Sequence record: PX969468.1
Origin: a phage
DNA: 64,000 bases
Direction: 5' to 3' (one strand)
Both the position numbers and the translations under genes were made by a program. Positions within the stretch are counted from its first letter, which is position 1. Each line of letters begins with the position of its first letter. Positions 34,211-64,000 of the stretch are shown one piece after another. The notes under the pieces were generated by a model. The model was not told the origin of the DNA and did not search any database. It was given only the letters and a program-made list of their open reading frames with translations.

Positions 34211-34270
34211 TAAGATGTTAGTCTAAAGGGGAGGCACTCCTCCCCACAAAAACTAAGGAAGCACTAAACG

Positions 34271-42924: not shown

Positions 42925-42961
42925 TTGACAACAGTGATAGGGCCTAATATAATGGCCCTAT
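42925..42961 (+). promoter_or_regulatory. Consensus sigma70 promoter with -10 embedded in an 8-bp-arm palindrome
   Basis: TTGACA, 17-nt spacer, TATAAT; ATAGGGCC-TAATATAAT-GGCCCTAT. Confidence 0.6.
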
Positions 42962-42984
42962 CAAAACGAAAGGGGACCACAGCA

Positions 42985-50627: not shown

Positions 50628-50639
50628 GATATTTATGGT

Positions 50640-51250
50640 GGTATTTATTTTAAAATTATAAAAATTTTAGGTGATGAGGGAAAATATGTAATGGATTTTC
50701 CCTTATTTATCAGATATTTGCAGATATTTGGAAATCCTTAGAAAATCAGAAAATGGATCGAAAACTAAAATGGATTTTTCAGAGTAGGCGCGACAAGCTG
50801 AATAACTCATCCTATCGTTTGCACCATATTCCAGGCCACCATTATAGATTTCCCACACATGCTAACCTCCCTCTACTAGAACTTCCTCCACTTACCCTTG
50901 ACCTTCTATGGTAACAATCTAACCACTATCTTGAAGTTGCGGTGCAGCTTTCCAGGTACTCGATCTACTTTTCATTTCAGGGCTTGGATTTTCTGAAAAT
51001 TTTTCTCGATAAATTTCTCAGTACTCGATCTGTTTTTCGTTTTCTGAATCGGATTTTCTGGAAATCGTTCCGGATCTAGGCCTGAAATTTTTAGGGACGA
51101 AATCGATTTTTCGTTTTCAGAAATGGATTTTTAAAATTTCTATATGGGAATATTTTAGTGGATACTATTTTATAGGAAATTGTTACGGAGGGTAATTAGC
51201 GTGCTAATTAAATTTATTAAATGCGAGGAGTTCTCATTTAGAATTTTGAA
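50640..51250. repeat. AT-rich non-coding region with short direct repeats (origin-like)
   Basis: AAATGGATTTTTC / GGATTTTCTG copies, tandem CAGATATTTG x2, GTACTCGATCT x2, GATTTTTCGTTTTC x2. Confidence 0.6.
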
Positions 51251-51278
51251 TGATAATCATTCTCGTTTGCAGAATAAC

Positions 51279-51308
51279 GGGCAGGCCCGGTGATTGTCTC
51301 CCGGCCCC
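51279..51308. repeat. Left copy of 25-bp inverted repeat GGCAGGCC(C/T)GGTGATTGTCTCCC
   Basis: Matches reverse complement of 61065-61089 at 23/25 positions; partial third copy at 51419-51437. Confidence 0.7.
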
Positions 51309-51675
51309 TACTGCCCCGGCTTGTTATTATAGTAACACACAGGACAAAGAAAGCAAGAAGTTTTTGCATAAATTTTTAGACGATAATGATAATCGTTCTC
51401 ATTTCATGCAGCGCCCATCCCCGGTGGTTGTCTCCCCCGTCACCGGTGCCTGCCGTCCTTTCGATATGTATATTGTGCCACCTGGCGGGGCCGCTGTCAA
51501 CACTTTTCAAAAAATTTTTTCTAACCTGATGCGCTAACCGCTGCAACCTGGCGGGGCCAGCCTGGCAGGACCTAACTGACCAGGTAGGGGAGAATGAAGG
51601 CTTGCAAACCTGGTGGGCCTATGCTATAGGATAGGTAACAATTGAAGAGGAGGTACAAAAAATGAAAGGTAATAT

Positions 51676-51843: not shown

Positions 51844-51872
51844 TTGACAGCTCGGACAGTTCTTGTTATTCT
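51844..51872 (+). promoter_or_regulatory. sigma70-like early promoter
   Basis: TTGACA, 17-nt spacer, TATTCT. Confidence 0.55.
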
Positions 51873-51925
51873 TATCCTCGCAAGGTGAACAACACCACAC
51901 CAATTAACAGAGAGGATAAAAAATC

Positions 51926-52123
51926 ATGAACGCCTACGGAATTAAAGTACGTCGCAACACTCGCCAGGTGGTCACCAATCAAGTGATTTGCCGGGTGGAT
52001 GTAACCATCAACAACGGGCAAGGCCTTTATAAATTTCGTCGCGGTCATAGCTATACCCTGCAGCAGCTTAACCGTTGCGCCCTGACAAAAGGTCAGATCA
52101 ACCACTGGTTTAATAAAAAATAA
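51926..52123 (+). CDS. Early-region small basic protein (65 aa)
   Basis: RBS AGAGAGG; own promoter. Confidence 0.5.
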   Translation: MNAYGIKVRRNTRQVVTNQVICRVDVTINNGQGLYKFRRGHSYTLQQLNRCALTKGQINHWFNKK

Positions 52124-52136
52124 ATATTGACACGTA

Positions 52137-52165
52137 GTCTGACACAAAATATACTTAAATCACAA
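52137..52165 (+). promoter_or_regulatory. sigma70-like early promoter
   Basis: TTGACA, 17-nt spacer, TATACT. Confidence 0.65.
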
Positions 52166-52187
52166 AAGACACTAAGAGGATAAAATC

Positions 52188-52586
52188 ATGAAAACTACAA
52201 CCTTTAATTTTGACAATGCCGACTTCTCTTTTTCTGATGTTAAGAATTGCCGCCGTGATCGTGGATTTTACAAGGCTTATAATCTGGTTGGCCTAGACGA
52301 TGATAATAATTTGCACGAAGTAGCGGAGATCCGGTACTATGCCGCCGCCAGCGGTAACACTAACTACTGCGTTTTTTGGATACACGACAACAAGAATAAT
52401 AAGTACGGTTATACTGGTGGCAAGGCGAGCGGTCACGGTTATGATAAGGCCAATGCAGCACTTGAGAGCGCGTTAAATGCTATGGGGATCACTGCCAACG
52501 GCTGGATCTATGAAGATGAGTTTTTGTCAGCACTTGCTGCCCACCTGGGGTATAAAAAGCACATTGTGACATGCGCCCACGAATAA
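52188..52586 (+). CDS. Early-region protein (132 aa)
   Basis: RBS AAGAGGA; own promoter. Confidence 0.55.
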   Translation: MKTTTFNFDNADFSFSDVKNCRRDRGFYKAYNLVGLDDDNNLHEVAEIRYYAAASGNTNYCVFWIHDNKNNKYGYTGGKASGHGYDKANAALESALNAMGITANGWIYEDEFLSALAAHLGYKKHIVTCAHE

Positions 52587-52597
52587 AAAAAAAATTA

Positions 52598-52654
52598 TTG
52601 ACACGCTGCAAAATTAAAGTAAACTAGACACAAAAGGCGGGAATGTTTCCCGCC
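52598..52654 (+). promoter_or_regulatory. Early promoter plus 5'-leader GC hairpin
   Basis: TTGACA-N16/17-TAAACT, then GGCGGGAA-TGT-TTCCCGCC hairpin, CA-rich spacer, SD, ATG 52675. Confidence 0.55.
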
Positions 52655-52674
52655 AACACAAAGGAAAAAAGATC

Positions 52675-53070
52675 ATGAATAAGAACGTACGCCGCATCAT
52701 GAACGAACTGGCAAACGATGAAAAAATTATTGATATGCATTTGGTAAACATTTGCCGCCGTTGTGTAACATATAACAACCGCGCCGCAAAAGCGCGTGAG
52801 ATGAACGCAAAAGGCACCTTAAAGCCCTTTCAGGTGGTTGTAAAATCTATAACCAGTGCAGCAGGCCAGGCGCATGACCACAACAACGGGAGCACTAATA
52901 TTGATCCGTCTTACGTAATGAAACGGATCCGGACTTGCAAGAATAAAGAGCAGGTGTATAACGTCATAGATTGGCTGGACTCCCTGGGCGATGTGGTTTA
53001 TAATAGGTTTTCTGCAGCTATCGAGATCCAGCTTGACAGACTGGACGGGAAAGTACTGAAAACTTACTAA
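52675..53070 (+). CDS. Early-region protein (131 aa)
   Basis: RBS AAAGGAAAAAAG; own promoter and leader hairpin. Confidence 0.55.
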   Translation: MNKNVRRIMNELANDEKIIDMHLVNICRRCVTYNNRAAKAREMNAKGTLKPFQVVVKSITSAAGQAHDHNNGSTNIDPSYVMKRIRTCKNKEQVYNVIDWLDSLGDVVYNRFSAAIEIQLDRLDGKVLKTY

Positions 53071-53082
53071 GTTTATTTTTAG

Positions 53083-53119
53083 ATGGCCTTGACGCCAGGG
53101 CCATCAATAAAGTAAACTA
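53083..53119 (+). promoter_or_regulatory. Palindrome-embedded promoter element, copy 1
   Basis: GATGGCC-TTGACGCCAG-GGCCATC with -35 TTGACG in the centre and TAAACT at -10. Confidence 0.6.
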
Positions 53120-53149
53120 ATCCCAGTTAAGCTAAAAGGAGGCTTGAAG

Positions 53150-53269
53150 ATGAGCACTACACGCCAGCACACAAAGGTAACTATTATCGTTTGCATCATT
53201 GGTTATATCCTGGCGCAAATGTTGATGGGTAGCGCCAACGGTGTCGCAAAATTTTTCTTAAACTTTTAA
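53150..53269 (+). CDS. Possible small hydrophobic peptide (39 aa)
   Basis: ATG after AAAAGGAGG immediately downstream of palindromic promoter; TM-like core. Confidence 0.4.
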   Translation: MSTTRQHTKVTIIVCIIGYILAQMLMGSANGVAKFFLNF

Positions 53270-53324
53270 TTGACAAGCTAACTTAGATCGGTATACTAAA
53301 CACATCAACGGGAAAACTTCCCAG
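53270..53324 (+). promoter_or_regulatory. Early promoter plus 5'-leader hairpin
   Basis: TTGACA-N16-TATACT, then GGGAA-AAC-TTCCC hairpin. Confidence 0.6.
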
Positions 53325-53347
53325 AACACACAAAAGGAGAAAACACC

Positions 53348-53689
53348 ATGACCACTATGACCGCCGCAGAAAAAGCTATTCAGATCGCTGCCCTGAAAAA
53401 ACAGATCGCAGACCTTGAGAATAAGATCGATAACTTTGAAATCGACGAGGACAAGTACGACGAAAACTATGATGAATGGTTAGACGAGATCTACGGCGAA
53501 ATTATGATCGGAAACATTTCTTTTCTTCCGTCGCGTATCCTCAAGGAGCTAGATCCTATCGCTTACCGCTGCGGATTTAGCGACTACATCGACAGCCTGG
53601 ATATTGAGGACGATGAAGAATACCAGGAATTACAGACAGAGTTGGAAGAAGCAAAAGAAGAGCTTGCGGAGCTGGAAGAAAACGAGTAA
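53348..53689 (+). CDS. Early-region highly acidic protein (113 aa)
   Basis: RBS AAAGGAGA; Asp/Glu-rich throughout. Confidence 0.55.
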   Translation: MTTMTAAEKAIQIAALKKQIADLENKIDNFEIDEDKYDENYDEWLDEIYGEIMIGNISFLPSRILKELDPIAYRCGFSDYIDSLDIEDDEEYQELQTELEEAKEELAELEENE

Positions 53690-53702
53690 GATTATTTTTA
53701 GA

Positions 53703-53738
53703 TGGCCTTGACTCCAGGGCCATCAATAAAGTAAACTT
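53703..53738 (+). promoter_or_regulatory. Palindrome-embedded promoter element, copy 2
   Basis: GATGGCC-TTGACTCCAG-GGCCATC then ATAAAGTAAACT. Confidence 0.6.
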
Positions 53739-53778
53739 TATACTGTTAACACTGAACTAATGCATAGGAGTTAAAACC

Positions 53779-54024
53779 ATGGCAGCACTAATCACTAAAT
53801 ATTACGCCCCTACCAACACCAAAAGCGCCCGTATCATGGTAAAAGGCTTCGGACGTAAAAAGGTTTACACCTGGGATTATGCCTTAGACATGGAAGACAA
53901 CTACACCAACGCGATGACAGATTTTATTAATGAGCTGAACACGCGGATCTTGACAAATTATAAAATTACCGATATTGCCTATATAGGGGAAGGCGGGATC
54001 TGTTTTGTCGGTATCGTCAAATAA
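53779..54024 (+). CDS. Early-region protein (81 aa)
   Basis: RBS TAGGAG. Confidence 0.5.
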   Translation: MAALITKYYAPTNTKSARIMVKGFGRKKVYTWDYALDMEDNYTNAMTDFINELNTRILTNYKITDIAYIGEGGICFVGIVK

Positions 54025-54100
54025 ACTGTTTTTTCGGTGGTCCTGGTAGCAGGGCCATCTATAAAGATAGTTTATCAATACAATGAAAGGAGAAAGTAAC

Positions 54101-54454
54101 ATGATCAGTGGGGCAAGTTTTATTATTGGCGCTATTGCTACGGCTTTAATTGTAAACAAGATCCAATCTAAAAACGAAAAAGAGAGCAACGCGCTCACAG
54201 AATACCCATTTTGGATATTCAACGACAATGAAGACTACATTATCAAGTACAAGAATGAGAAGGGCGACCAGGTAACACCGCGACCGATCCCGGCCTACAA
54301 GATGCAAGAAACACTATACCGCCTAAAGGCTGGAGGCGCAAAAATCGTAGACTTTTGGGGATATGATTGCAAGGATCAGGAGGTTATAAAACGGCGTATC
54401 CGGGCTATTCAGGCCAATATTGAAGTTAGCAAGGGGGGAATATATGAAGATTAA
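54101..54454 (+). CDS. Early-region membrane protein (117 aa)
   Basis: ATG after AAAGGAGAAAG; N-terminal TM helix. Confidence 0.5.
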   Translation: MISGASFIIGAIATALIVNKIQSKNEKESNALTEYPFWIFNDNEDYIIKYKNEKGDQVTPRPIPAYKMQETLYRLKAGGAKIVDFWGYDCKDQEVIKRRIRAIQANIEVSKGGIYED

Positions 54455-54641
54455 TTTTGAGAAGATTGTAAAGCGATCTCATGATTCCGAAGAGCTGCCG
54501 GAACGCCGCCAGCGTAACAATAAACTGAATAAGCCAAAAAGATTTGGGAAGATCTGGCGGAATCATTATGATCGTAAATTGCCGGGCCTCCTTTTGGAAC
54601 GTGAACGGCAGGCGGAACGATACCGCCATAAAGACAAATAA
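54444..54641 (+). CDS. Early-region small basic protein (65 aa)
   Basis: ATG after AAGGGGGGAA; Arg/Lys-rich. Confidence 0.45.
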   Translation: MKINFEKIVKRSHDSEELPERRQRNNKLNKPKRFGKIWRNHYDRKLPGLLLERERQAERYRHKDK

Positions 54642-54659
54642 CAACCAACGCCCCGCCAT

Positions 54660-54689
54660 CGTGCGGGGCTTTTTATTTCTACCCTACGA
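54660..54689 (+). terminator. Intrinsic terminator
   Basis: CCCCGC-CATCGT-GCGGGG followed by CTTTTTATTT. Confidence 0.7.
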
Positions 54690-54884
54690 ATAGCGCCCCT
54701 GGTTGGCCCCACAACGCCAAAAAGGCCCCACCTATGCAATCGCCCCCCTTTAACCTGAAAACATCGCTTAGGGCCGTTTTATGGCGTTAAAAATATCATT
54801 GACAGTGATTTTATTTAAAGCTTGACATCTAAAATATTCTAGATATACTAATCACATCAAAGCGAGAAGTAAGGAGTAAACGCC

Positions 54885-55145
54885 ATGCGTAAATTAAAAA
54901 ATTTTGATAAAGTTGATATTGTCCTGAATAATTTTTACTACTGCAATAACAAGGCCGTTTGGTGGCGTGATAGTTCCACCGATAAAGTCAAGGCGCGCTT
55001 TCTCCAGGGGCACTGGCAAGGCCGCCCAGTGATTAAAATCATGGGGCAATTGGTAGCGTTTAAAAATTGCCGCCGTGTTGATGACGTTGAAGAGATTTTA
55101 AACATTTTGCGCCACAATAATTTAAAAAATAGTGTTGACAAGTAA
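54885..55145 (+). CDS. Early-region protein (86 aa)
   Basis: RBS AAGGAG; promoter-like TTGACA-N16-TATACT at 54827-54856. Confidence 0.5.
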   Translation: MRKLKNFDKVDIVLNNFYYCNNKAVWWRDSSTDKVKARFLQGHWQGRPVIKIMGQLVAFKNCRRVDDVEEILNILRHNNLKNSVDK

Positions 55146-55191
55146 ATCTCAATAAGTATAATTAAAAACACAGGCGGGAAAACTTCCCGCC
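55135..55191 (+). promoter_or_regulatory. Early promoter (overlapping upstream stop) plus leader hairpin
   Basis: TTGACA-N16-TATAAT, then GGCGGGAA-AAC-TTCCCGCC hairpin. Confidence 0.65.
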
Positions 55192-55219
55192 ACTAACAAA
55201 GAAAACAGGAGAAAATATC

Positions 55220-55843
55220 ATGACCACCGTTAACATTACCACAGGTTACAATTTAGCTTTCGACGTGCTGACCGACGAACAAAAAGAAAAAGCCGTGGAA
55301 ATGGTCCGCGAAAGAGAAGAACACAGCGGGGATAACTTTTTTGCAGAAAGTGTAATTGAGTACTATAAAGAATATATCTTTCCAGAGTACGGCCTTGAAG
55401 ATACCGATGTACATTGGTCAGGCTTTTGGTGCCAGGGTGACGGCGCGTCAATCAGTGCGGAAAACGTGGATTTAGAAAAATTCTTGCGTAAAGTCAAGTC
55501 TCTGACTAAATTCCGCTCAATTCGTCACTTGTTCGGCACAATGCACGATGGCGAGTTATCCGCAAGTGTTGAGCGTGATCCATATAGCCGCTATAGTCAC
55601 GAAAACACTGTAAACGGATACATCGATACTACATGGCTAGACCTGACCACCAAACAAGAAAACAAAGTGGAAGATCTGGAAGAGCTGATCACCGAGACGG
55701 TACGGGAGTTATCCCGCAAGGTTTACGTAGACCTGGAGGAAGCCTATCTTGAACAATTCACCGCCGAAAACTTGATCGGCCTTATCGAGGCCAATGATTG
55801 GCGGTTTGATGTCGATGAACACGGTGAGATGACTTTTTCATAA
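55220..55843 (+). CDS. Early-region acidic protein (207 aa)
   Basis: RBS CAGGAGAAAA; own promoter and leader hairpin. Confidence 0.55.
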   Translation: MTTVNITTGYNLAFDVLTDEQKEKAVEMVREREEHSGDNFFAESVIEYYKEYIFPEYGLEDTDVHWSGFWCQGDGASISAENVDLEKFLRKVKSLTKFRSIRHLFGTMHDGELSASVERDPYSRYSHENTVNGYIDTTWLDLTTKQENKVEDLEELITETVRELSRKVYVDLEEAYLEQFTAENLIGLIEANDWRFDVDEHGEMTFS

Positions 55844-55931
55844 ATAAAGTGTTGCAATAACCTAAAAACCTGCTATATTAAAACTCAAGGGGCAAGACGT
55901 TTGCCCCACACAAAACAAAGAGGTAAACATT

Positions 55932-56312
55932 ATGAAAAACACTACTAAAGCTATTGACACCGTTATGTTTAACCTGGTTACATTCCGTGAAGATATGAAA
56001 GATCTTCCACGTGAAACAGTGTGCGATCACATTGAAAACTATCGCAAACTAATCAAAGAGTTGCCTTTAAAACGTGACCAGTATGCGGCTAACGCTATGC
56101 TTAACGCCATGATCAAAAAGATGATTCAGTGTGATTTAACTCTGGCCTATGATTATGCAGGTGGTCGTTTTGCAGTATACAATCAGCCCGTGCCTGGTAT
56201 GAGCACCACCGAAGAATTGCACGCGTTAAATCTGAAACAAGATGTATGGGATAACATGCCCCGCGTGGTGGTGTGGGCAGAAAGCGGAAAGATTTACGGC
56301 GATAATTTTTAA
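55932..56312 (+). CDS. Early-region protein (126 aa)
   Basis: promoter TTGCAA-N16-TATATT upstream, hairpin GGGGCAA..TTGCCCC, RBS AGAGG. Confidence 0.55.
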   Translation: MKNTTKAIDTVMFNLVTFREDMKDLPRETVCDHIENYRKLIKELPLKRDQYAANAMLNAMIKKMIQCDLTLAYDYAGGRFAVYNQPVPGMSTTEELHALNLKQDVWDNMPRVVVWAESGKIYGDNF

Positions 56313-56376
56313 TCAGGTAACAGGCGGCATATTTGCCGCCTTATTGTTAAACAGAACTGCAAAAGAGGTACATAGA

Positions 56377-56748
56377 ATGGAATTTATTATTTTGGCTGTA
56401 GTAGTTGCCTTGTTCAACGCCTGGATCGCTGGCAAGATAGGTAGATCCGCTTTTCTATGGTTTGTTATATCTATTTTCCTGGGAGTGGTTGCAACTATTG
56501 TATTGGTTATCCTTGCAATTGTTGACAAGGGCGATAATAGAAAGGGTAAAGTGTTTTCCGACCTGTATGACGCACAAACGTTTGTCAACGCCTATTATAG
56601 TGATCTTCCAGTCTCCCTACGCTGCAGCCTGGCACAACAGGTTTTTGATGAGGCTAAAACCAGAGACCAAGCCCATGAGATATGTTTAACTGAAGCGGAT
56701 CGCCTATTTGAGAGGAATAGAAAATATGTGGACCAGCCGTTTAAATAA
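56377..56748 (+). CDS. Early-region membrane protein (123 aa)
   Basis: ATG after AGAGG; two predicted TM helices; leader hairpin GGCGGCA-TATT-TGCCGCC. Confidence 0.5.
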   Translation: MEFIILAVVVALFNAWIAGKIGRSAFLWFVISIFLGVVATIVLVILAIVDKGDNRKGKVFSDLYDAQTFVNAYYSDLPVSLRCSLAQQVFDEAKTRDQAHEICLTEADRLFERNRKYVDQPFK

Positions 56749-56947
56749 CGCCACGTTAATTAATCCCTTTAGTGAAGATTTGAAGCCAGCCGCCTGGCGT
56801 GACGGATTCAATAACGAACGCTTTATTTTCAGGCCTGATCTTGAGGAATTTTATAACAATGGATCGAACAACAGCGGAGATAATTTTTCTTGTGGTGTGC
56901 GTGGTGATAGGACTCCTGGGGGCCATTGTAAACCACGTCACCACTAA
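56726..56947 (+). CDS. Possible small protein (73 aa); alternative overlapping frame also possible
   Basis: ATG after GAGAGG; overlaps 56859-56984 frame that would encode a TM peptide. Confidence 0.3.
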   Translation: MWTSRLNNATLINPFSEDLKPAAWRDGFNNERFIFRPDLEEFYNNGSNNSGDNFSCGVRGDRTPGGHCKPRHH

Positions 56948-56967
56948 CAGGAGGGAAGGGGGAGACG

Positions 56968-57087
56968 ATGACAACCAAGGATAAGCCATGCGCTGATAAG
57001 GTGCGCCGTGTTATGGTATGGCTTGAGATTATCGCCCTTGAAATATTGTTAGGCGTAGGGATGTACTTTATCGCTGTAAGTAACTAA
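56968..57087 (+). CDS. Possible small membrane peptide (39 aa)
   Basis: ATG after AGGAGGGAAGGGGGA; hydrophobic core; terminator follows. Confidence 0.35.
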   Translation: MTTKDKPCADKVRRVMVWLEIIALEILLGVGMYFIAVSN

Positions 57088-57091
57088 GAGC

Positions 57092-57125
57092 GGCCCCCGA
57101 TCATGGGGGCCTATCTTTTAAAAAA
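57092..57125 (+). terminator. Intrinsic terminator
   Basis: GGCCCCC-GATCAT-GGGGGCC followed by TATCTTTTAAAAAATTTTTC. Confidence 0.7.
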
Positions 57126-57225
57126 TTTTTCTTCCGGGGTGTTGCAATCCGGTCCGGAATGTGGATAATAACAATCAACGGGGAGCTAATCCCCACCACC
57201 ACAAAAACCAGAAAGGAGAAACAAA

Positions 57226-57426
57226 ATGAGCAACAATATCCGCGTTATTAACTTCAAAAAAGAAGAAAAAATTGCCGTGCTGATTGACGGTCAAGAAATC
57301 TTCAAGGGCGACTATGAAGATCATCAAACGGCGATTAGTATCACTCGCGTGATTGGTTATCATAATTTCTACCCCCAAGGCGCTGAGGCAGCAGTTAAAC
57401 GAATCAAAGAGATTGTAGGCCTGTAA
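57226..57426 (+). CDS. Early-region protein (66 aa)
   Basis: promoter TTGCAA-N17-GATAAT upstream, hairpin GGGGA..TCCCC, RBS AAGGAGA. Confidence 0.5.
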   Translation: MSNNIRVINFKKEEKIAVLIDGQEIFKGDYEDHQTAISITRVIGYHNFYPQGAEAAVKRIKEIVGL

Positions 57427-57438
57427 AATTTATTTTTA

Positions 57439-57475
57439 GATGGCCTTGACTTCAGGGCCATCGATAAAGTAAATT
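57439..57475 (+). promoter_or_regulatory. Palindrome-embedded promoter element, copy 3
   Basis: GATGGCC-TTGACTTCAG-GGCCATC then GATAAAGTAAATT. Confidence 0.6.
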
Positions 57476-57510
57476 TAAACCCTGTTAAAATACCACGCAG
57501 TTAACAAGGA

Positions 57511-57819
57511 GTGATAGACATGTTTATCCAGGCTAATAATCTTTATTTCTTTGATGGTCAGATCGTAGATGGTGTGGAAGTGGAGATCACCGGGTGCCCT
57601 GGCGGTCAGGCTATGACTTTTCGGAATAATGCCTTTGATGATTCTCATATCGTTATGAGAATGGAAGTTACGAAGCTGGACGACAAGAAAACACTTATTG
57701 ACTATTCTGTGAAAGATCATCCAGACTACCGCATGATCCATGGTGATTTGTGCATTGTTGACCGTGACAAGGTGGGCGGCATTGTGATCGCTATTGTGAA
57801 CGATGTTTTCTCAAACTAA
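57511..57819 (+). CDS. Early-region protein (102 aa)
   Basis: RBS AAGGAG. Confidence 0.5.
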   Translation: MIDMFIQANNLYFFDGQIVDGVEVEITGCPGGQAMTFRNNAFDDSHIVMRMEVTKLDDKKTLIDYSVKDHPDYRMIHGDLCIVDRDKVGGIVIAIVNDVFSN

Positions 57820-57836
57820 TTTCAGCAGGCGATTTT

Positions 57837-58187
57837 ATGAAAGTCAAACTATATTACCTTAATGAGCTTAACCCCCTTGCCCAGGTCCGCGCCCTAGCTA
57901 ATACCTTGATTTGTGAGAAATCTGTATATTGTGTTGAGCTTAACGCCATGCGTGAACGTCTCAAAGGTGGTTACTTTGACATCCATGCTGCAATCAACGG
58001 CCTGAATATGGAATTTATACGCTTACGTAACAGCCGCCGGAATCTGGCAAGAATGGAACAAGATCCGGCCCACCTTCGTAAGCTGGTTATTGAAAATCAT
58101 CTGATGTTTAATGCCGAGGGTGATTATTACCATTTTCACCGCAAACGCTGGTACCGTGGCGGCAATACAGGCAAGAATGCAAAATAA
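57837..58187 (+). CDS. Early-region protein (116 aa)
   Basis: ORF; weak RBS. Confidence 0.45.
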   Translation: MKVKLYYLNELNPLAQVRALANTLICEKSVYCVELNAMRERLKGGYFDIHAAINGLNMEFIRLRNSRRNLARMEQDPAHLRKLVIENHLMFNAEGDYYHFHRKRWYRGGNTGKNAK

Positions 58188-58222
58188 GGCCCCTAGCAGG
58201 GCCTGCAGCAATATAATCACAT

Positions 58223-58255
58223 AAAGGCCATGCGGTTGCATGGCCTTTATTATTT
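58223..58255 (+). terminator. Intrinsic terminator
   Basis: AAAGGCCATGC-GGTT-GCATGGCCTTT followed by ATTATTTTGG. Confidence 0.7.
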
Positions 58256-58389
58256 TGGCGTTACAACGGCATACGGGGCGCTTAAAAAATTTTTAAAGAA
58301 GTACTTGCATCATTCCCGACAATATGGATAATAAGAGTTGTCGAGGGGGAGGCCCCCAATCGTTGACCAGATAGATAGGAGTTAAAATC

Positions 58390-58674
58390 ATGGCTATTGT
58401 TACCGCTGGCGATGTAGTAGAAATGGAAGCAAAATACTTAAAAGCGGGTATGCACATCCTACGGAATGATCAAGAGTTATTATTAACGATGGTTGACTAT
58501 AATCACGGCCAGGATTATCCAAGCATCGACTACTTTTTTGAGTATGTTGATGAAGAGTTGAAAGAGGATGAGGCCTATTGCGGTGAGTTCTGCAACTTCT
58601 TTTGTCCTGATGAGGTTGTAAAGGTTATTTATCAACCTGGCGTAGCTTTCCCGCTGCACGCTATCAATAAATAA
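58390..58674 (+). CDS. Early-region acidic protein (94 aa)
   Basis: promoter TTGCAT-N17-GATAAT upstream, hairpin GGGGG-AGG-CCCCC, RBS TAGGAG. Confidence 0.5.
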   Translation: MAIVTAGDVVEMEAKYLKAGMHILRNDQELLLTMVDYNHGQDYPSIDYFFEYVDEELKEDEAYCGEFCNFFCPDEVVKVIYQPGVAFPLHAINK

Positions 58675-58729
58675 ACCTGGCGGGGCCGAAAAGGCCCCCA
58701 ATTATGAAAATAAAGAGAGGCAAATCATC

Positions 58730-58963
58730 ATGATGGAACAAATTAAACGCGCCGAGGCTATTAATGGCAACGTGATCTATTTTGTCAGCAAAAACGAAAA
58801 AGGCGTACCATATGCGGCAGTAATAGTACAACCTGACGGCGATTATTGGTTTACTGTGTACGGCACTTATTCTTTTGGGCGTCCAGTGCATGATAAAATT
58901 TTGAAAGTAGCGAACCCTACCGGGAAGAATATCACAGCAGAAAAATTTTTTGAAAATAGTTGA
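58730..58963 (+). CDS. Early-region protein (77 aa)
   Basis: RBS AGAGAGG. Confidence 0.5.
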   Translation: MMEQIKRAEAINGNVIYFVSKNEKGVPYAAVIVQPDGDYWFTVYGTYSFGRPVHDKILKVANPTGKNITAEKFFENS

Positions 58964-59038
58964 CATGACCATATAAGACTGTAATATATAAATCAAAGGG
59001 GGCAACGAACCCCACCAACTACAAAGAGGATAAAAATC

Positions 59039-59218
59039 ATGGCTATTATTGCAAAGACTGAGATCGTAGGCTTAGATTCTATTCTCCTCGCATATGAGGA
59101 AGCTATAGAAATGTATGTGGTTTCCTATGGTGAGTATATCCGTGAATATAAATCTATTGATCTGGCTTTTGAATGTTATATCCGCCAGGTTAATAAAGCG
59201 TACGATGATTATCGTTAA
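59039..59218 (+). CDS. Possible early-region protein (59 aa), below ORF-track cutoff
   Basis: promoter TTGACA-N16-TAATAT at 58968, leader hairpin, RBS AGAGGA. Confidence 0.4.
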   Translation: MAIIAKTEIVGLDSILLAYEEAIEMYVVSYGEYIREYKSIDLAFECYIRQVNKAYDDYR

Positions 59219-59224
59219 AATAGT

Positions 59225-59253
59225 TTGACAACAGCCATCTTACAAAGCATAAT
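59225..59253 (+). promoter_or_regulatory. sigma70-like early promoter
   Basis: TTGACA, 17-nt spacer, CATAAT; followed by GGCGG..CCGCC leader hairpin. Confidence 0.6.
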
Positions 59254-59305
59254 ACATAAGGCGGTGGAATGGTCCGCCACCTGGAACAAAGAAGAGGTAA
59301 ACACC

Positions 59306-59551
59306 ATGAAAAGCAATAAAGGTTATAACGGTTACAAAAACAAAACTCATTGGAATGTAAGCCTTTGGATTAATAACGATGAGTCATTGTACCGGTTGGC
59401 CCAAGGCTTTATTAACGCCAATGCTAATCGTAATGATGCGGCGCGGGATATGATGCTTTTTCTGGAGCTAACCGGACAAGATAAGACCCCGGACGGCTTC
59501 AAGTACAGCACTACGGCGATCCGTGCCGCGATGGTTGGAATGAAACACTAA
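59306..59551 (+). CDS. Early-region protein (81 aa)
   Basis: ATG after AGAAGAGG; track ORF start 59225 lies in promoter. Confidence 0.5.
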   Translation: MKSNKGYNGYKNKTHWNVSLWINNDESLYRLAQGFINANANRNDAARDMMLFLELTGQDKTPDGFKYSTTAIRAAMVGMKH

Positions 59552-59628
59552 AAGCACATAGCTGCCTTACCCTGGGGCTGTGGTAGCGGCCCCATGAATA
59601 AGGTTACTAACAGAAGAGAATAAACACC

Positions 59629-59733
59629 ATGAAACAGAAATTAATCGATGCAGTGATCTTGGTTATTGCCCTGGGTATTGGCCTGATTGCAACCATGTCT
59701 AATATGATCTTGTCTTCCAACGGTATCGGGTGA
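59629..59733 (+). CDS. Possible small membrane peptide (34 aa)
   Basis: ATG after AGAAGAG; hydrophobic core. Confidence 0.3.
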   Translation: MKQKLIDAVILVIALGIGLIATMSNMILSSNGIG

Positions 59734-59742
59734 GGTTGGCAA

Positions 59743-59958
59743 ATGATCACTAACAAAACAGGCAAAACGGAATTTTTACGCAACTTACAGATCGGCAAGC
59801 CTGAGATCTGGTACTGCACTAAAACACCGCGTGACGAAATGAAAGACTTCACCGCCACGCTGCAACGGGTAAAGATATCTATCACGCAGAAAAAGGCCTT
59901 ACTAGTGGTGGAAGGGGAGATCCCCCAAACCGTTGTTATAGTTGAGCGTACAGCATAG
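59743..59958 (+). CDS. Early-region protein (71 aa)
   Basis: RBS GAGGTTGG. Confidence 0.45.
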   Translation: MITNKTGKTEFLRNLQIGKPEIWYCTKTPRDEMKDFTATLQRVKISITQKKALLVVEGEIPQTVVIVERTA

Positions 59959-60049
59959 TTTAATTTATACAGATACCTGAAAATTAACCAACAAAGCATA
60001 AACAGGCGGTTACCGCCGCCTTAAACGTAGCAGAAAGAGGATAGACACA

Positions 60050-60334
60050 ATGAAAAAGATGATCGCAGTGGTTACCCTGGTTGTTGGACTTAATGCGCCT
60101 GTAATGGCTAAAGAGCTGGCAAAAGAGGTTAATCTAACGGATATTCATGCCGTCAATCAAATCGGGGTTACTTATCGCTTATGCCTTGCCGCTAAAACTT
60201 TTAAGGACGGCACAACAGAGTACTACGGATTCGAGGGTATCCGGTGCGGTGAGCTTGCTCGCGACCTTAAGGAAGATCCAGACCTGGAGGATCTGCCCAT
60301 AACCGTGAACGGGAAAACTTACGTGAACCGTTAA
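60050..60334 (+). CDS. Early-region secreted protein (94 aa)
   Basis: signal-peptide-like N-terminus (MKKMIAVVTLVVGLNAPVMA); RBS AGAGGA; leader hairpin GGCGG-TTA-CCGCC. Confidence 0.5.
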   Translation: MKKMIAVVTLVVGLNAPVMAKELAKEVNLTDIHAVNQIGVTYRLCLAAKTFKDGTTEYYGFEGIRCGELARDLKEDPDLEDLPITVNGKTYVNR

Positions 60335-60336
60335 CC

Positions 60337-60471
60337 ATGAGAAAGATAATTATTACCATGGGGATCGTGGCGGCAATGTTGGCGATCTTTCCCTTTATGG
60401 TTAGGTATGTGCTGATTAATGTTGTCCTGGTAGTCAGCGATCTGGTGTTATATATTAACTCATTGTTTTAG
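60337..60471 (+). CDS. Possible small membrane peptide (44 aa)
   Basis: ATG 2 nt after upstream stop; hydrophobic. Confidence 0.3.
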   Translation: MRKIIITMGIVAAMLAIFPFMVRYVLINVVLVVSDLVLYINSLF

Positions 60472-60479
60472 GCGCGATA

Positions 60480-60671
60480 ATGACAGCGGAAGAAGTTAAA
60501 AAAGTACTGGCGGTACTGCGTTATCATAATCATTGCAAGGTGAAGAATGATCCTGATTATCTTGATTCATCCCTTGAAGAGGATACACTACAAGCCATAA
60601 GCAACATGCAAGAATTGCTTAAGCGTATGACAGAGAAAAACCGACCGGACTACATAGGGGGTAAAATATGA
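60480..60671 (+). CDS. Early-region protein (63 aa)
   Basis: ORF. Confidence 0.4.
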   Translation: MTAEEVKKVLAVLRYHNHCKVKNDPDYLDSSLEEDTLQAISNMQELLKRMTEKNRPDYIGGKI

Positions 60672-60979
60672 TCGCTATTACGCCAACCGTTTTAGATTGG
60701 TATCGGCAACGCATAGCGCCTCCGCTGGCTATCTTCAAAGATGCGGAAGCAAAACAACGCCGGATCTCAATACATGAGATCATCAACCTTAACGCTGGAG
60801 GCACACCATACCGCCCAGGACCTGGCCGTGAGATGGACAATACATTGGCGATCCTGAAGATACGCCGTAAACGGTCCTCCCTTACGCTGGATTCATTACA
60901 CACAATGCAGTCTCCGTTCCAGGTGACTGGGAAACGGATCGCCAGGTCCTGGACAAAGGCCAATGACCGGACCGTATAA
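60668..60979 (+). CDS. Early-region protein (103 aa)
   Basis: RBS AGGGGG; ATGA overlap with upstream gene. Confidence 0.45.
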   Translation: MIAITPTVLDWYRQRIAPPLAIFKDAEAKQRRISIHEIINLNAGGTPYRPGPGREMDNTLAILKIRRKRSSLTLDSLHTMQSPFQVTGKRIARSWTKANDRTV

Positions 60980-61064
60980 ATAAAAAGTGTTTTGGTACTG
61001 ATTTTGGGGTTGACTTGTTCGGCCCCTTTTGCTATTCTTATTAAACGGGCGGCACTTGGGAACA

Positions 61065-61089
61065 GGGGGAGACAATCACCAGGCCTGCC
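61065..61089. repeat. Right copy (inverted) of 25-bp repeat GGCAGGCC(C/T)GGTGATTGTCTCCC
   Basis: GGGGGAGACAATCACCAGGCCTGCC is the reverse complement of the 51279-51308 core. Confidence 0.7.
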
Positions 61090-61197
61090 TGTCATATAAG
61101 AACTATAAAAACCGTTGACATCTGCCAGGGGGTGGGGTAACATTTATCTTGAAGGGGCAAAGGTGCCCACACAACAACCAGAAGAGAGGAAAACACT

Positions 61198-61470
61198 ATG
61201 TCAAGCTGGATTAATCAAGAAGTCGAATCACGTTTTAATGCTATTTGGGATCTCATCGAAAAAGAAGACGGCACATCAAGCCCCTACCTCAACAATTTGG
61301 AATTCCATTTTGTGGAAGCGATGAACGCAGAACATGATCACGAAGGTGGTGCGGACGAGTTCGCTAAAGGGTATGGCTTCAATAATGCCAACGAAATGAT
61401 CGAGGCGGTTGTACTCCAGGCTGAGGAAGATTATCAATTAAAAACGCTTGAATTCTGCCGCCGTAAGTAA
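61198..61470 (+). CDS. Early-region acidic protein (90 aa)
   Basis: promoter TTGACA upstream, leader hairpin GGGCA-AAGG-TGCCC, RBS AGAGAGGAAAA. Confidence 0.5.
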   Translation: MSSWINQEVESRFNAIWDLIEKEDGTSSPYLNNLEFHFVEAMNAEHDHEGGADEFAKGYGFNNANEMIEAVVLQAEEDYQLKTLEFCRRK

Positions 61471-61530
61471 TAAGATAATGACACGGGCCGGGAGGCCCAC
61501 TAATCAGAACCACACAAAGAGGTAAACATC

Positions 61531-61794
61531 ATGAAACGTCTTGATCAGCTTAAACTAGTTCAGTACATGGCCTACAAAGTTCTTGAAGTCCAAAAAGGTA
61601 GCAAAAAAGAGGTTTGCGAGAAAGCATATAAGATCTTTACCCGTAAAAAAGATGATTGGATGTTACGCCAGACCAAAAAAGCCGATATCCTGGGATACCT
61701 GGAAGAAGAGATCCGACTTGAAGAACAAGAAGAGATCCGCCGTAGTGAGGCAGATTATCAGGCAGCTTGGGAAAACTGGATGAGCAACAAATAA
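61531..61794 (+). CDS. Early-region protein (87 aa), Lys/Glu-rich
   Basis: leader hairpin GGGCC-GGGA-GGCCC, RBS AGAGG. Confidence 0.5.
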   Translation: MKRLDQLKLVQYMAYKVLEVQKGSKKEVCEKAYKIFTRKKDDWMLRQTKKADILGYLEEEIRLEEQEEIRRSEADYQAAWENWMSNK

Positions 61795-61937
61795 TACAAC
61801 AAGTTACATGGTCAGGGGCAATAAAGCCCCTTGATCACATAAAAATTATGCTATCCTTGGTTGACAAGGATCGGCAGTTTTGCTATATTCTTTTTGAAGG
61901 GAAGTTGTAAGAAAATTAACTAAGAGGTAAAAACACC

Positions 61938-62357
61938 ATGAACATTAAATCTAATAATCCGGCATATAGCTTTGATAACGCTTTTTGTCACGGTCCGGCG
62001 GCGAAAGGATTCGAAATCGATGGTAAACTAATTATTGTCAATGTTGACGGGGAAGAGGTTGCAGTATATCCGGTGGCAGACGTAAAAAGCCGTTTACAAT
62101 GCCGCATTGATGTTACCGCCTATCAGCTTGATCCGGTCCGCATAGTTGCCCTGGTCCTGGAAGAAGAAATTAAAGCCATGCACCATAGCAACAGATTTAT
62201 TGGTGACGCGCAGGATAATATGAAAGTATGCCGCCATAAAGTTAATGAAGTGCTTAAAGAGTACGGCTATAAAGATCTTATGATCAAACGTGAGGAAAAA
62301 TTCCGCTACCGTAACGACCTGGCAAATCGAATCTATGAAATATACGAATCATTATAA
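61938..62357 (+). CDS. Early-region protein (139 aa)
   Basis: promoter TTGACA-N17-TATATT at 61861-61889, RBS AGAGG. Confidence 0.55.
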   Translation: MNIKSNNPAYSFDNAFCHGPAAKGFEIDGKLIIVNVDGEEVAVYPVADVKSRLQCRIDVTAYQLDPVRIVALVLEEEIKAMHHSNRFIGDAQDNMKVCRHKVNEVLKEYGYKDLMIKREEKFRYRNDLANRIYEIYESL

Positions 62358-62376
62358 TTTCTTAACTAAACTATCA

Positions 62377-62403
62377 GGGGCTTTAAAAGGCCCCTTTCTT
62401 TTT
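62377..62403 (+). terminator. Intrinsic terminator closing the small-gene block
   Basis: GGGGCT-TTAAAA-GGCCCC followed by TTTCTTTTTG. Confidence 0.7.
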
Positions 62404-63020
62404 GTCTGTATTTCTCCTACCACAAACGGCCCAGCCTGGCAAGTGGAATAATTGACTAGCCATCAATCCCACACACTGTACAAATATACATGGAAAATAA
62501 CTATTGCATAATCTTTCATTGTGTGGTAGCAGGGACATTTTTACCCGTTTTCTCTCCCAAAAGTGCACGTAATGCCGCTATTGCACAAATTTTAACCTGA
62601 TGCACATCTCCAATATCTTGTCAACAACTAAAAATCTTTATAAGTCATACACTTACACAACATCGAAAGCGTGTCCTACGCGAAAAATCGAGTATAACTA
62701 TAGCCGCCAAATCTCAGAATTCACGTACGCACGCCATTCTATAGCCTGCAAAGTATTTATTCCAACCACAGAATAACGGAATAGTCAATACCTGCATAAA
62801 ATAATTATTCGTGTAAACTGCATAACATAAATCCGCTCAGGTGTCAACATTTTTCGTAAACAGTCCGAAATTATCACGATGAGTTATCATAAACAAAGAA
62901 ATCTTTAGTCGTCTAATGTTTACTGTACATTACTATACTGACTGGAATCATTAGATGACTAAGAGAAAGATAAGGAATAATTAACAATGTAAGTATTTTA
63001 CCTGCAACAATAAGGCAACT

Positions 63021-63040
63021 ATGCAAACGAATGGCATGGC
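63021..63040. repeat. 20-bp direct repeat, copy 1
   Basis: ATGCAAACGAATGGCATGGC; second copy at 63325-63344 with one mismatch. Confidence 0.7.
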
Positions 63041-63053
63041 GCGACGGAGTCGC

Positions 63054-63205
63054 GACATAATATAAAAGCAGTAACAATCACCCCCGTGATAGTTTTTCTG
63101 CAATCTATTATTCAGATCATAGTTGCCTTGTATCCAGTTAATCATGACATAATAAGCAAGGCAACTATAGATCTGATAATAGTTGCCCTGCTTTTATATT
63201 ATGTC
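63054..63205. repeat. Perfect 18-bp inverted repeat pair enclosing AAGGCAACTAT sites
   Basis: GACATAATATAAAAGCAG (63054-63071) and CTGCTTTTATATTATGTC (63188-63205); four AAGGCAACTAT-like copies between 63011 and 63190 in both orientations. Confidence 0.75.
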
Positions 63206-63256
63206 ATAGAAACGCCCGAAGGGGTGACCTAGTCACCTGGCATAGCCAGCGAAAGA

Positions 63257-63320
63257 TTATTAACTTGTTAATCGTCAGCTTGTTGGCTGTTAGCTTGTCA
63301 ATTGTTAACTTGTTAATTGT
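63257..63320. repeat. Iteron array 1 (4 x about 15 bp, TTAACTTGTTAAT-like)
   Basis: TTAACTTGTTAATCG, TCAGCTTGTTGGCTG, TTAGCTTGTCAATTG, TTAACTTGTTAATTG in tandem. Confidence 0.7.
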
Positions 63321-63324
63321 TTTC

Positions 63325-63344
63325 ATGCAAACGAATGTCATGGC
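63325..63344. repeat. 20-bp direct repeat, copy 2
   Basis: ATGCAAACGAATGTCATGGC. Confidence 0.7.
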
Positions 63345-63356
63345 TTATCATATCTG

Positions 63357-63432
63357 TGTAAACTGTCAAGGTGTAAACTATCCAGGCGTAAACAGTCTAT
63401 GCGGGAACAATCTATACGTGAACAGTGAAACA
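63357..63432. repeat. Iteron array 2 (5 x about 15 bp, GTAAAC-N3-TC-like)
   Basis: GTGTAAACTGTCAAG, GTGTAAACTATCCAG, GCGTAAACAGTCTAT, GGGAACAATCTATAC, GTGAACAGTGAAACA. Confidence 0.7.
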
Positions 63433-63453
63433 TGAAATAATAACAGTCGTTAT

Positions 63454-63545
63454 TGTGTCGAAAGTGTATAAAGTGTCAGATTATGGCATATTGTGTGACA
63501 TTGTGTCAAAGGTAAAAGTGTCAAAAGTGGCAAAAGTGTCAGACA
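63454..63545. repeat. Iteron array 3 (about 8 x 10 bp, AAGTGTCA-like)
   Basis: TTGTGTCGAA, AAGTGTATAA, AAGTGTCAGA, TTGTGTGACA, TTGTGTCAAA, AAGTGTCAAA, AAGTGGCAAA, AAGTGTCAGA at about 10-bp period. Confidence 0.7.
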
Positions 63546-64000
63546 AGTTTTTCTCCTCTTTGTCAAGTGCTGCATGAAAAATTTACAAACTGGTATGGTA
63601 GCATTTTTGCGGCCCTGTTTACATTCAGGAGTGTATGTATAACCCTTGTTGTGTGGGCGTTTAGACGTCTGGACGGTCAGAAGTCCGCAGGTTAATATCT
63701 AATCTATTGGTCGCTAACTATATCCCCCACAAATAATAAGAAATGCAATTGTTATGTGCGTAAACAGTGACTCATGTTATCAATCCCTGTATGTATCGCC
63801 AGTGGTGCGCATAATGGGTATTATGTTAAATTGCCCGTAATGATAACTATTCTCACAATGATAGGTATTCTCATTCAACCCCGCAAAACAGGTTGCAAAT
63901 GTTGTGCCACTGTGTGAACGGCCTCACCTATTAATCTGCCTCACTGCCCCGATATTTGAGAATTGTTATAAGAATGAGAAGTATTCCCATTTCGTCCGCC

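Follow-up and report, generated by a model that had tools for sequence, protein, structure and literature searches.

Promoter-early stem-loops (PeSLs) are mobile promoter/stem-loop cassettes of the T4-like phages RB49/phi1, PST and nt-1, and consist of an AT-rich tract, a consensus sigma-70 promoter, a stem-loop of the form G(n)-loop-C(n) and a Shine-Dalgarno (SD) sequence with its ATG (PMC2839356; PMC4122927). Found in clusters upstream of ORFans, within plastic regions, they bring about modular shuffling (PMC2839356; PMC4122927); terminator or attenuator activity of the stem-loop and mini-circle formation also belong to the PeSL description. Arbiol et al. 2010 distinguished five subclasses by the position of the stem-loop, downstream of −10 among them (PMC2839356). 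Here, we analyzed the GC-rich hairpins that recur before the genes of a plus-strand ORFan array in the phage sequence record PX969468.1, whose 64,000 nucleotides (nt) are referred to as the window. The array was found to contain sigma-70 promoters with an AT-rich tract upstream, stem-loops of the G(n)-loop-C(n) form, the SD/ATG of clustered ORFans, and insertions and deletions (indels) joined at cassettes, all as described for PeSLs. Judged from sequence, these units, ~65-90 nt in length and dispersed in the rV5-like ORFan array, are PeSL-type cassettes with fairly high confidence. The first-pass annotation, which had described a hairpin, a CA-rich spacer and an SD on many early genes, overlooked that the units are repeats dispersed through the array, belong to the PeSL type and double as recombination joints. 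The explanation that we favor as a whole, at a probability of about 0.55, is that of PeSL-type cassettes in which the hairpin would act as a 5'-proximal mRNA structure protecting or insulating the message.

Nucleotide comparison of positions 52400-61600 revealed 98.9% identity to Escherichia phage A6-1 and 93-98% identity to many rV5-like phages. The A6-1 match and the annotation of phage Murica place the source phage, by sequence, in Vequintavirus as an rV5-like coliphage. Approximately 31 small plus-strand genes crowd the 11-kb array (51.6-62.4 kb), inside which the hairpin cassettes lie. The array is positioned at the distal end of the long rV5 transcription unit '10-1-238-164', has intergenic regions of 55-90 nt and is bordered on either side by non-coding repeat regions. 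All 10 array proteins tested belonged to PHROG families of unknown function.

Anatomy of the hairpin cassettes

Thirteen hairpins were examined in the array, namely the 11 listed in the first-pass annotation, all of which were located again with shifts of 0-4 nt, and two further hairpins at 58682-58698 and 58998-59013. A hairpin downstream of −10 and transcribed from its own promoter was assigned to class A, and a hairpin enclosing −35 to class B. The earlier statement that the hairpins lie downstream of a −10 box held for nine hairpins behind strong promoters and one behind a weak promoter (hairpin 61485, promoter TTGAAT-17-TAAGAT at 61448), but not for those at 56322, 58682 and 60004, which are promoter-less. 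The strong promoters of the nine class A hairpins match the consensus at 8-12 of 12 positions and have spacers of 16-17 nt and a gap to the hairpin of 6-12 nt, with a mode of 10. Table S4 of the rV5 paper lists most of these promoters and is silent on the hairpins behind them. The class A cassettes and the promoter-less hairpins are as follows (promoters as −35-spacer-−10, loops in lower case, z as the z-score of the leader fold).

52598-52677, plus strand: class A; −35 TTGACA at 52598, −10 TAAACT at 52620-52625, gap 10, hairpin GGCGGGAA-tgt-TTCCCGCC at 52636-52654, A/C spacer, SD, ATG at 52675; leader fold −14.6 kcal/mol, z −4.1
53270-53350, plus strand: class A; TTGACA-16-TATACT, gap 12, weak hairpin GGGAA-aac-TTCCC at 53310-53322, ATG at 53348 (exact AAACACCATG); z −1.3
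55135-55222, plus strand: class A; perfect TTGACA-16-TATAAT, gap 10, hairpin GGCGGGAA-aac-TTCCCGCC at 55173-55191, ATG at 55220; z −4.7
55852-55934, plus strand: class A; TTGCAA-16-TATATT (upstream TG), gap 9, hairpin GGGGCAA-gacgt-TTGCCCC at 55889-55907, ATG at 55932; z −3.4
56322-56379, plus strand: promoter-less hairpin; AGGCGGCA-tatt-TGCCGCCT at 56322-56341, then TTATTGTT; 9 nt past a stop codon, ATG at 56377
57142-57228, plus strand: class A; TTGCAA-16-GATAAT, gap 10, hairpin GGGGA-gctaa-TCCCC at 57180-57194, ATG at 57226; canonical terminator at 57092-57111 upstream
58305-58392, plus strand: class A; TTGCAT-16-GATAAT, gap 12, hairpin GGGGG-agg-CCCCC at 58345-58357, ATG at 58390; canonical terminator at 58221-58250 upstream
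58682-58732, plus strand: promoter-less hairpin; GGGGCC-gaaaa-GGCCCC at 58682-58698, 7 nt past a stop codon, ATG at 58730
58960-59041, plus strand: class A; TTGACA-16-TAATAT, gap 10, weak hairpin GGGG-gcaacgaa-CCCC at 58998-59013, ATG at 59039
59225-59308, plus strand: class A; TTGACA-17-CATAAT, gap 6, hairpin GGCGG-tggaatggt-CCGCC at 59260-59278 (alternative register 59263-59281), ATG at 59306
60004-60052, plus strand: promoter-less hairpin; AGGCGG-ttaccg-CCGCCT at 60004-60021, ATG at 60050
61115-61200, plus strand: class A; TTGACA-17-TAACAT, gap 11, hairpin GGGCA-aagg-TGCCC at 61155-61168, ATG at 61198
61448-61533, plus strand: class A with weak promoter; TTGAAT-17-TAAGAT within the end of the upstream gene, gap 8, hairpin GGGCC-ggga-GGCCC at 61485-61498, ATG at 61531
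34187-34274, plus strand: class A outside the array; TTGACT-17-TAAGAT, gap 11, hairpin GGGGAGG-cact-CCTCCCC at 34228-34245, ATG at 34272

The repeated hairpin-plus-leader design proposed earlier is strongly non-random. A strict hairpin, defined as a stem of at least 5 base pairs (bp) with at least 4 G-C pairs starting 5-13 nt after −10, was found behind 7 of the 17 module promoters against an expectation of 0.010 per promoter (binomial P = 1.9e-10), while in 2000 dinucleotide shuffles, promoters with such a hairpin numbered 0.075 on average and 2 at most. The 22 nt before −35 are 78% AT versus 56% window-wide, and the gap between −10 and the hairpin has a pyrimidine-purine step at positions 7-8. 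In all 13 hairpins, the G-rich arm precedes the C-rich arm; the loops measure 3-9 nt and the folding energies range from −4 to −15 kcal/mol. Transcript start sites were predicted from promoter geometry, which gave class A leaders of 43-50 nt with 0-6 unpaired 5' nucleotides (median 3); in hairpin 58345, the pairing extends from the predicted +1. This placement just past the predicted start suits the mRNA 5'-end element envisaged in the first-pass annotation, as did the folding of the leaders, since all 10 predicted leaders formed one 5' hairpin that left the spacer, SD and AUG essentially open. Five of the minimum-energy folds had weak pairs in the spacer, SD or AUG, never more than 2-3, and the z-scores of the 10 folds ranged from −0.45 to −4.7.

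The spacer between hairpin and SD is 20-35 nt long in the array. The nucleotide composition from hairpin to ATG is 53% A, 18% C, 17% G and 11% T, with T depleted at P = 2e-12, and upstream of the SD, A+C reaches 78% with both G and T depleted. The earlier term 'CA-rich' is a rough description of the spacer, which is mainly A-rich. The start context AAACA(C/T)CATG, claimed for every start, is present as an exact copy in just 3 of the 13 hairpin leaders; the window holds 5 exact copies on the plus strand, where 0.65 were expected on both strands. All 22 promoter-proximal genes, whether or not they carry a hairpin, share a ribosome-binding consensus of fixed spacing, AAAGGAG/AAAGAGGtAAAcAyC-ATG-A.

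The cassettes are dispersed repeats that fall into families D1, D2, D5 and D6. The 51-nt class B repeat, TATTTTTAGATGGCCTTGACnCCAGGGCCATCAATAAAGTAAACT, occurs at 53068-53118, 53687-53737, 54022-54072 and 57425-57475, with a degenerate relative at 59565-59600. Its hairpin of 6-10 bp encloses the promoter −35, and degenerate copies that lack the −35 still have the hairpin. The class B copies and the remaining cassettes are as follows.

53068-53152, plus strand: class B, copy 1 (51-nt repeat, family D1); hairpin ATGGCC..GGCCAT around −35 TTGACG, −10 TAAACT, ATG at 53150
53687-53781, plus strand: class B, copy 2; 96% identical to copy 1, ATG at 53779
54022-54103, plus strand: class B, degenerate copy; 67%, −35 lost, hairpin kept, ATG at 54101; 'terminator' in the phage Murica annotation
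57425-57522, plus strand: class B, copy 4; 88%, ATG at 57520
59565-59631, plus strand: degenerate class B-like; hairpin TGGGGCTG-tggtag-CGGCCCCA, ATG at 59629 (exact AAACACCATG)
51844-52190, plus strand: two hairpin-less cassettes; promoters at 51844 and 52127, same promoter and ribosome-binding region, no GC hairpin
54822-54887, plus strand: hairpin-less cassette; shares the −10-proximal sequence of 53297 (family D2), ATG at 54885
61814-61940, plus strand: hairpin followed by promoter; AGGGGC-aataaa-GCCCCT at 61814-61831, promoter at 61861 with its −35 in an inverted repeat, ATG at 61938

Outside the array, a promoter at 42925-42963 overlaps an inverted repeat whose 10-bp stem (42935-42963) holds the −10 TATAAT in its loop, and at 41725-41760 the arms ACTGCA/TGCAGT (41731-41758) flank a promoter spacer and −10.

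Conservation and recombination among relatives

The cassettes were compared with those of seven Vequintaviruses that are 88-100% identical over the cassette regions. Per-site divergence was 0.7% in the promoter hexamers, 2.6% in the stems, 4.9% from SD to ATG and 16.8% in the loops, and about 7% in the promoter spacer, gap and leader spacer. The low divergence of the stem beside a freely changing loop indicated selection on the stem but not on the loop. Three loops were inverted exactly: 55889 in FV3 (GACGT/ACGTC) with the stem kept, 58682 in phage 206 (GAAAA/TTTTC) with the stem lengthened to 10 bp, and 60004 in FV3 and YP-6 (TTACCG/CGGTAA) with the stem kept, showing hairpin-like behavior of the repeat in the DNA itself. 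Several stems gained a paired base on both arms among the relatives. These data, together with the different stem sequences of different cassettes, bore out the earlier proposal of a structural role rather than a sequence-specific site, and they support the view that the element acts through structure, not sequence.

The same data bear on the idea that the hairpin and its 5' flank (CATA/CACA then GGSGG) form a binding site for a phage or host factor, be it an early-gene shut-off nuclease or a repressor, or a nut/put-like signal that modifies RNA polymerase, which we regard as highly improbable. The 5' arm always starts with GG(C/G)G at a fixed position, GTAGGGCGGCAAT(A/G)GTGCCGC is nearly invariant in phi92 and phAPEC8, and the loop GAAAA at 58688 resembles the lambda boxB loop. 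However, the loops differ from one another in length (3-9 nt) and in sequence and are freely inverted, stems differ between cassettes, and there is no boxA-like partner; an Rfam search of 50-64 kb (E-value mode) gave nothing above threshold and two sub-threshold chance matches. Antitermination of the nut/put kind, which calls for a conserved loop or a two-hairpin fold bound by a factor or by RNA polymerase (and, for nut, for boxA), and a loop-binding protein were rejected, as the loops are unrelated to each other, unconserved and invertible. A Rho loading site was rejected as well: a rut site needs roughly 70 nt, and the C-rich, G-poor stretch here spans merely 6-21 nt.

The same design was found in phAPEC8 and phi92 (Stephanstirmvirinae), whose cassettes consist of TTGACA-N16/17-TAnnnT, 10 nt ending in CATA, the hairpin GGGCGGCA-atrg-TGCCGC(C/T)C, an A/C spacer, SD and ATG. 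Over about two dozen cassettes from three genomes, the gap is centered on 10-11 nt (standard deviation 2.0) and the distance from hairpin to ATG is 17-35 nt (standard deviation 4.5). The stem of the promoter-less hairpin 56322 matches the class A consensus stem of phAPEC8/phi92 exactly, and the promoter-less hairpin 60004 is retained before the phAPEC8 orthologue (protein 80% identical), its stem changed yet paired. In a Certrevirus phage, the hairpins lie over −10 or −35 and the A/C-rich leader is retained. The phAPEC8 features annotated as 'putative promoter determined with PHIRE' (556-575, 937-956, 1787-1806 and 3202-3221 of the phAPEC8 sequence compared) coincide with the leader hairpin GTAGGGCGGCAATGGTGCCG; they are probably mis-annotated, because the hairpin sits downstream of a normal sigma-70 promoter. 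A hairpin promoter for an N4-type phage polymerase, or a PHIRE 'phage promoter', was rejected, since the motif always lies just past a full sigma-70 promoter; to our knowledge, the rV5/phAPEC8/phi92 group has no N4-type phage polymerase.

Because hairpin placement is kept across two subfamilies despite sequence turnover, we also considered that the GG(C/G)G hairpin ~10 nt past −10 could be a cis signal read during or shortly after promoter escape, through RNA polymerase or a phage early protein, and so time the early genes. We think this improbable; if it were true, the hairpin would be no passive stabilizer, and it could serve the joint shut-off of early mRNAs or a termination-resistant polymerase.

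Approximately 12 indels were found among the seven relatives, 6 of them with junctions in the −35, the hairpin stem or the ribosome-binding site, and the three measurable junctions had an overlapping alignment of 13-36 nt. In YP-6, 55138-55841 (a 207-aa gene) is deleted and −35 is joined to −35. In phage 206, the deletion of 59321-59611 (gene 59306) runs from one ribosome-binding site to the next with 32 nt of overlapping alignment. Typing phage 14 carries an extra gene between hairpin 61485 and ATG 61531, with the leader/ribosome-binding stretch imperfectly repeated on either side (36 nt of overlapping alignment). FV3 has lost gene 61938, with hairpin 61814 joined to the terminator at 62376-62395 through the shared stem AGGGGC/GCCCCT. 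Replacements begin right after TTGACA at cassette 58960 in FV3 and YP-6 and at 59225 in typing phage 14, and two replacement junctions bring in leaders closely matching phi92/phAPEC8 cassettes. This divergence into phi92/phAPEC8-like leaders showed exchange between the subfamilies Vequintavirinae and Stephanstirmvirinae. Being repeated, the promoters, stems and ribosome-binding sites of the cassettes provide joints for the deletion, insertion and exchange of genes. ORFan arrays are rebuilt by whole genes that travel with their own promoter, hairpin and ribosome-binding site, in some cases between subfamilies.

These joints raise the alternative that the hairpin has no function in RNA and that the inverted repeat persists in a selfish or recombinogenic DNA cassette promoting template switching and exchange. 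The three loop inversions are the signature of template switching at a DNA hairpin, the FV3 deletion runs from hairpin to hairpin with further junctions lying within cassettes, and hairpin-less cassettes exist. No G-U excess over A-C pairs was established in the stems either: the counts of 20 versus 10 (88 leader hairpins, 11 sequences), or ~7 versus 4-5 in class A, were too noisy to tell whether the structure forms as RNA or as DNA, or on which strand. Against this stand the clear purifying selection on stems relative to loops and flanks, the location of most junctions at the −35 or the ribosome-binding site rather than the hairpin, and the position relative to −10, which is kept across two subfamilies though the intervening sequence differs. 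Further, the stems offer little recombination homology, because their sequences differ between cassettes. We consider a purely DNA-level cassette quite unlikely.

A wide spread was also seen for a single array gene: the 81-aa ORFan at 59306-59551 (phrog_871) has 84-86% DNA identity to sequences in 326-383 kb jumbo coliphages, Klebsiella phage ZCKP1 and phi92, a pattern that points to wide horizontal spread of one small gene. In the nucleotide match list, 22 records named 'Campylobacter phage' (host C. jejuni) were 93-95% identical to the array region; by their sequences, they look like mislabelled or contaminant Vequintavirus genomes. The left non-coding block (50630-51630) consists of repeats with a period of ~65 nt containing GGATTTTC/GGAAA, and the right one (62400-64000) holds the short repeat families GTGTCAAAAGTG, TTGTTAACTTGTTAAT and ATGCAAACGAATGNCATGGC and a strong minus-strand promoter at 63509; both blocks are candidate regions for an origin, packaging or regulator binding. 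Three copies of the 14-nt motif GGGAGACAAYCACC are present against 0.05 expected (51289-51302 and 51423-51436 on the minus strand, 61067-61080 on the plus strand), each copy 25-45 nt past a sigma-70-like promoter in non-coding DNA and within GC-rich imperfect inverted repeats. These loci may encode putative small non-coding RNAs; they gave no Rfam match, and the consensus fold from the three sequences was weak.

Proposed role of the hairpin

A 5'-hairpin mechanism is proposed with moderate confidence. Sited ~10 nt after −10, the class A hairpin would be the first structured element of the 43-50-nt leader to be transcribed by host RNA polymerase. It would hinder 5'-end-dependent attack by RppH and RNase E, as the ompA/papA stem-loops do, and keep the fold of the ribosome-binding site constant whatever RNA lies upstream, while the U-poor, (CA)n-like spacer would present few RNase E sites and leave the SD open. 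The combined outcome would be strong, context-independent early expression. The promoter-less hairpins could do the same job at processed 5' ends or guard the 3' end of the upstream cistron. RNase III processing, also raised in the first-pass annotation, was unsupported, because the stems of 4-8 bp (10 at most, with mismatches) are far too short for an enzyme whose sites need about two turns (~20 bp) of double-stranded RNA. In line with the proposed protection, both RppH and RNase E require a minimum of 2 unpaired 5' nucleotides and favor 3 or more (PMC8833179), and (CA)n has been placed in RNase E substrates as a spacer free of structure (PMC11194081).

Several observations weigh against this 5'-end mechanism. 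The predicted overhang, with a median of 3 and up to 6 nt, already suits RppH and RNase E, so protection may be weak, and simple stem-loops within a 5' untranslated region barely slow RNase E scanning (PMC11194081). The start sites themselves count as predictions; no mapped transcript ends were found for rV5-like phages in the literature searched, where the sole RNA-seq paper mentioning Vequintavirinae concerned a T5-like phage. A primary 5' end is evidently not required, since three hairpins are promoter-less and one of them is conserved as such across subfamilies. Class B and most RB49 hairpins lie upstream of the start and would therefore be present only in read-through RNA, a position that favors one shared function acting on upstream transcripts or on the DNA itself. 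Hairpins are missing altogether from four cassettes, and a strand-specific G-U pair test on the stems gave no signal.

Upstream transcripts are central to the main rival, in which the hairpins are attenuators or insulators that trim the flow of polymerase from strong upstream promoters and so keep expression from building up along the array, as proposed for PeSL stem-loops. The PeSL authors reported that an RB49 stem-loop inserted between a promoter and lacZ lowered expression to the same extent as rrnB T1, and this stem-loop likewise had no clean U-tract; both results speak against a protective 5' hairpin. Nearly every intergenic region of the array has exactly one GC hairpin, at any position relative to the promoter, promoter-less hairpins occur and are conserved, and hairpin 56322 carries the rV5 annotation of a rho-independent terminator, t184. 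However, measured against the rho-independent pattern of a GC hairpin followed by a U-tract, the 13 hairpins did not qualify, bar 56322, which was the only one flagged by the plus-strand terminator scan; the other 12 are followed by A/C-rich sequence without a U-tract. True terminators, at 54650, 57092, 58221 and 62376, are elements apart from the 13 hairpins. The promoters of 57180, 58345 and 61155 are already preceded by U-tract hairpins (57092, 58221 and 61006), of which 57092 and 58221 are the annotated rV5 terminators t181 and t177. A class A hairpin also lies in the transcript of its own promoter and would attenuate it equally, which argues against a terminator role, as a terminator there would defeat the promoter. 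Attenuation gives no reason for the tight 10-nt spacing to −10, and we consider it unlikely.

Read on the opposite strand, the hairpins might be intrinsic terminators that block antisense transcription before each promoter. Eight of them score as terminator-like on the minus strand, because the plus-strand sequence upstream is A-rich. The strong minus-strand promoter at 63509 and the minus-strand sequence AGGTAAAATA at 62994-63003, which is one mismatch from the rV5 late-promoter motif TGGTAAAATA and points leftward into the array, could supply such transcription. Yet at 57194, 58357 and 61169, and likewise in the phi92/phAPEC8 cassettes (tail TATGTGATAC), the antisense strand has a weak U-tract or none, and no late-type minus-strand promoter was found inside the array. 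Of all the readings weighed, this one seems to us the least credible.

Comparison with known systems

In the literature searched, to which the PVP-SE1 genome paper (PMC3194984) did not belong, no description of PeSL-like cassettes or of these hairpins in rV5-like phages was found. The hairpins resemble rho-independent terminators in their GC-rich stems of 5-8 bp and loops of 3-6 nt, but they lie downstream of promoters and 12 of the 13 are without a sense U-tract. The annotation could be corrected: what is labeled a PHIRE 'phage promoter' in phAPEC8, and in several cases a 'terminator' in rV5-like genomes, is this hairpin.

The leader of T7 gene 10 and synthetic 5' hairpin/insulator parts of expression vectors combine a hairpin near +1 with an unstructured A-rich leader and a strong SD, and give high, context-independent expression. 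The class A cassettes share with them the promoter, the hairpin close to +1, the unstructured A-rich leader and the strong SD. In contrast, these parts are single-copy and are not recombination modules, and T7 RNA polymerase takes the place of host sigma-70. With more than 12 hairpin/leader variants on host-type promoters, the cassettes are a natural set for studying the effects of 5'-proximal hairpins and U-poor leaders on mRNA lifetime and translation in E. coli, and possibly a source of compact expression parts.

According to work of Emory, Bouvet, Bricker and Belasco cited in PMC3997798, the ompA and papA mRNAs carry stabilizing 5' stem-loops, the papA element working at a processed internal 5' end. 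The rV5-like element is similar, in that a short hairpin of arbitrary sequence near the (here predicted) 5' end precedes a single-stranded leader with the ribosome-binding site. It differs in the predicted overhang of 0-6 nt (median 3), which is borderline for protection by a criterion of ~2-4 nt, and in being repeated on at least 13 genes within a mobile cassette.

The closest likeness is to the PeSLs, with which the cassettes share the AT-rich tract, the consensus sigma-70 promoter, the G(n)-loop-C(n) stem-loop, the A/C-rich leader, the strong SD-ATG, the packing into intergenic regions of 65-90 nt and the location upstream of ORFans in a plastic cluster; in the RB49 sequence inspected, leaders such as ...TATACTacacacataccgaaacgaactaggagaatcaattATG resemble those of the rV5-like phages. 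The RB49 lineage, however, belongs to Straboviridae, and there is no sequence homology between the RB49 and rV5-like cassettes. In the RB49 region inspected, most stem-loops occupy the interval between −35 and −10 or overlie the −10 box and so are not part of the promoter's own RNA, whereas the main rV5-like form is transcribed, starting ~10 nt past −10. Taken together, this comparison would extend the PeSL concept from the T4-like phages to the large rV5/phAPEC8/phi92 group, whose members are common in phage therapy collections.

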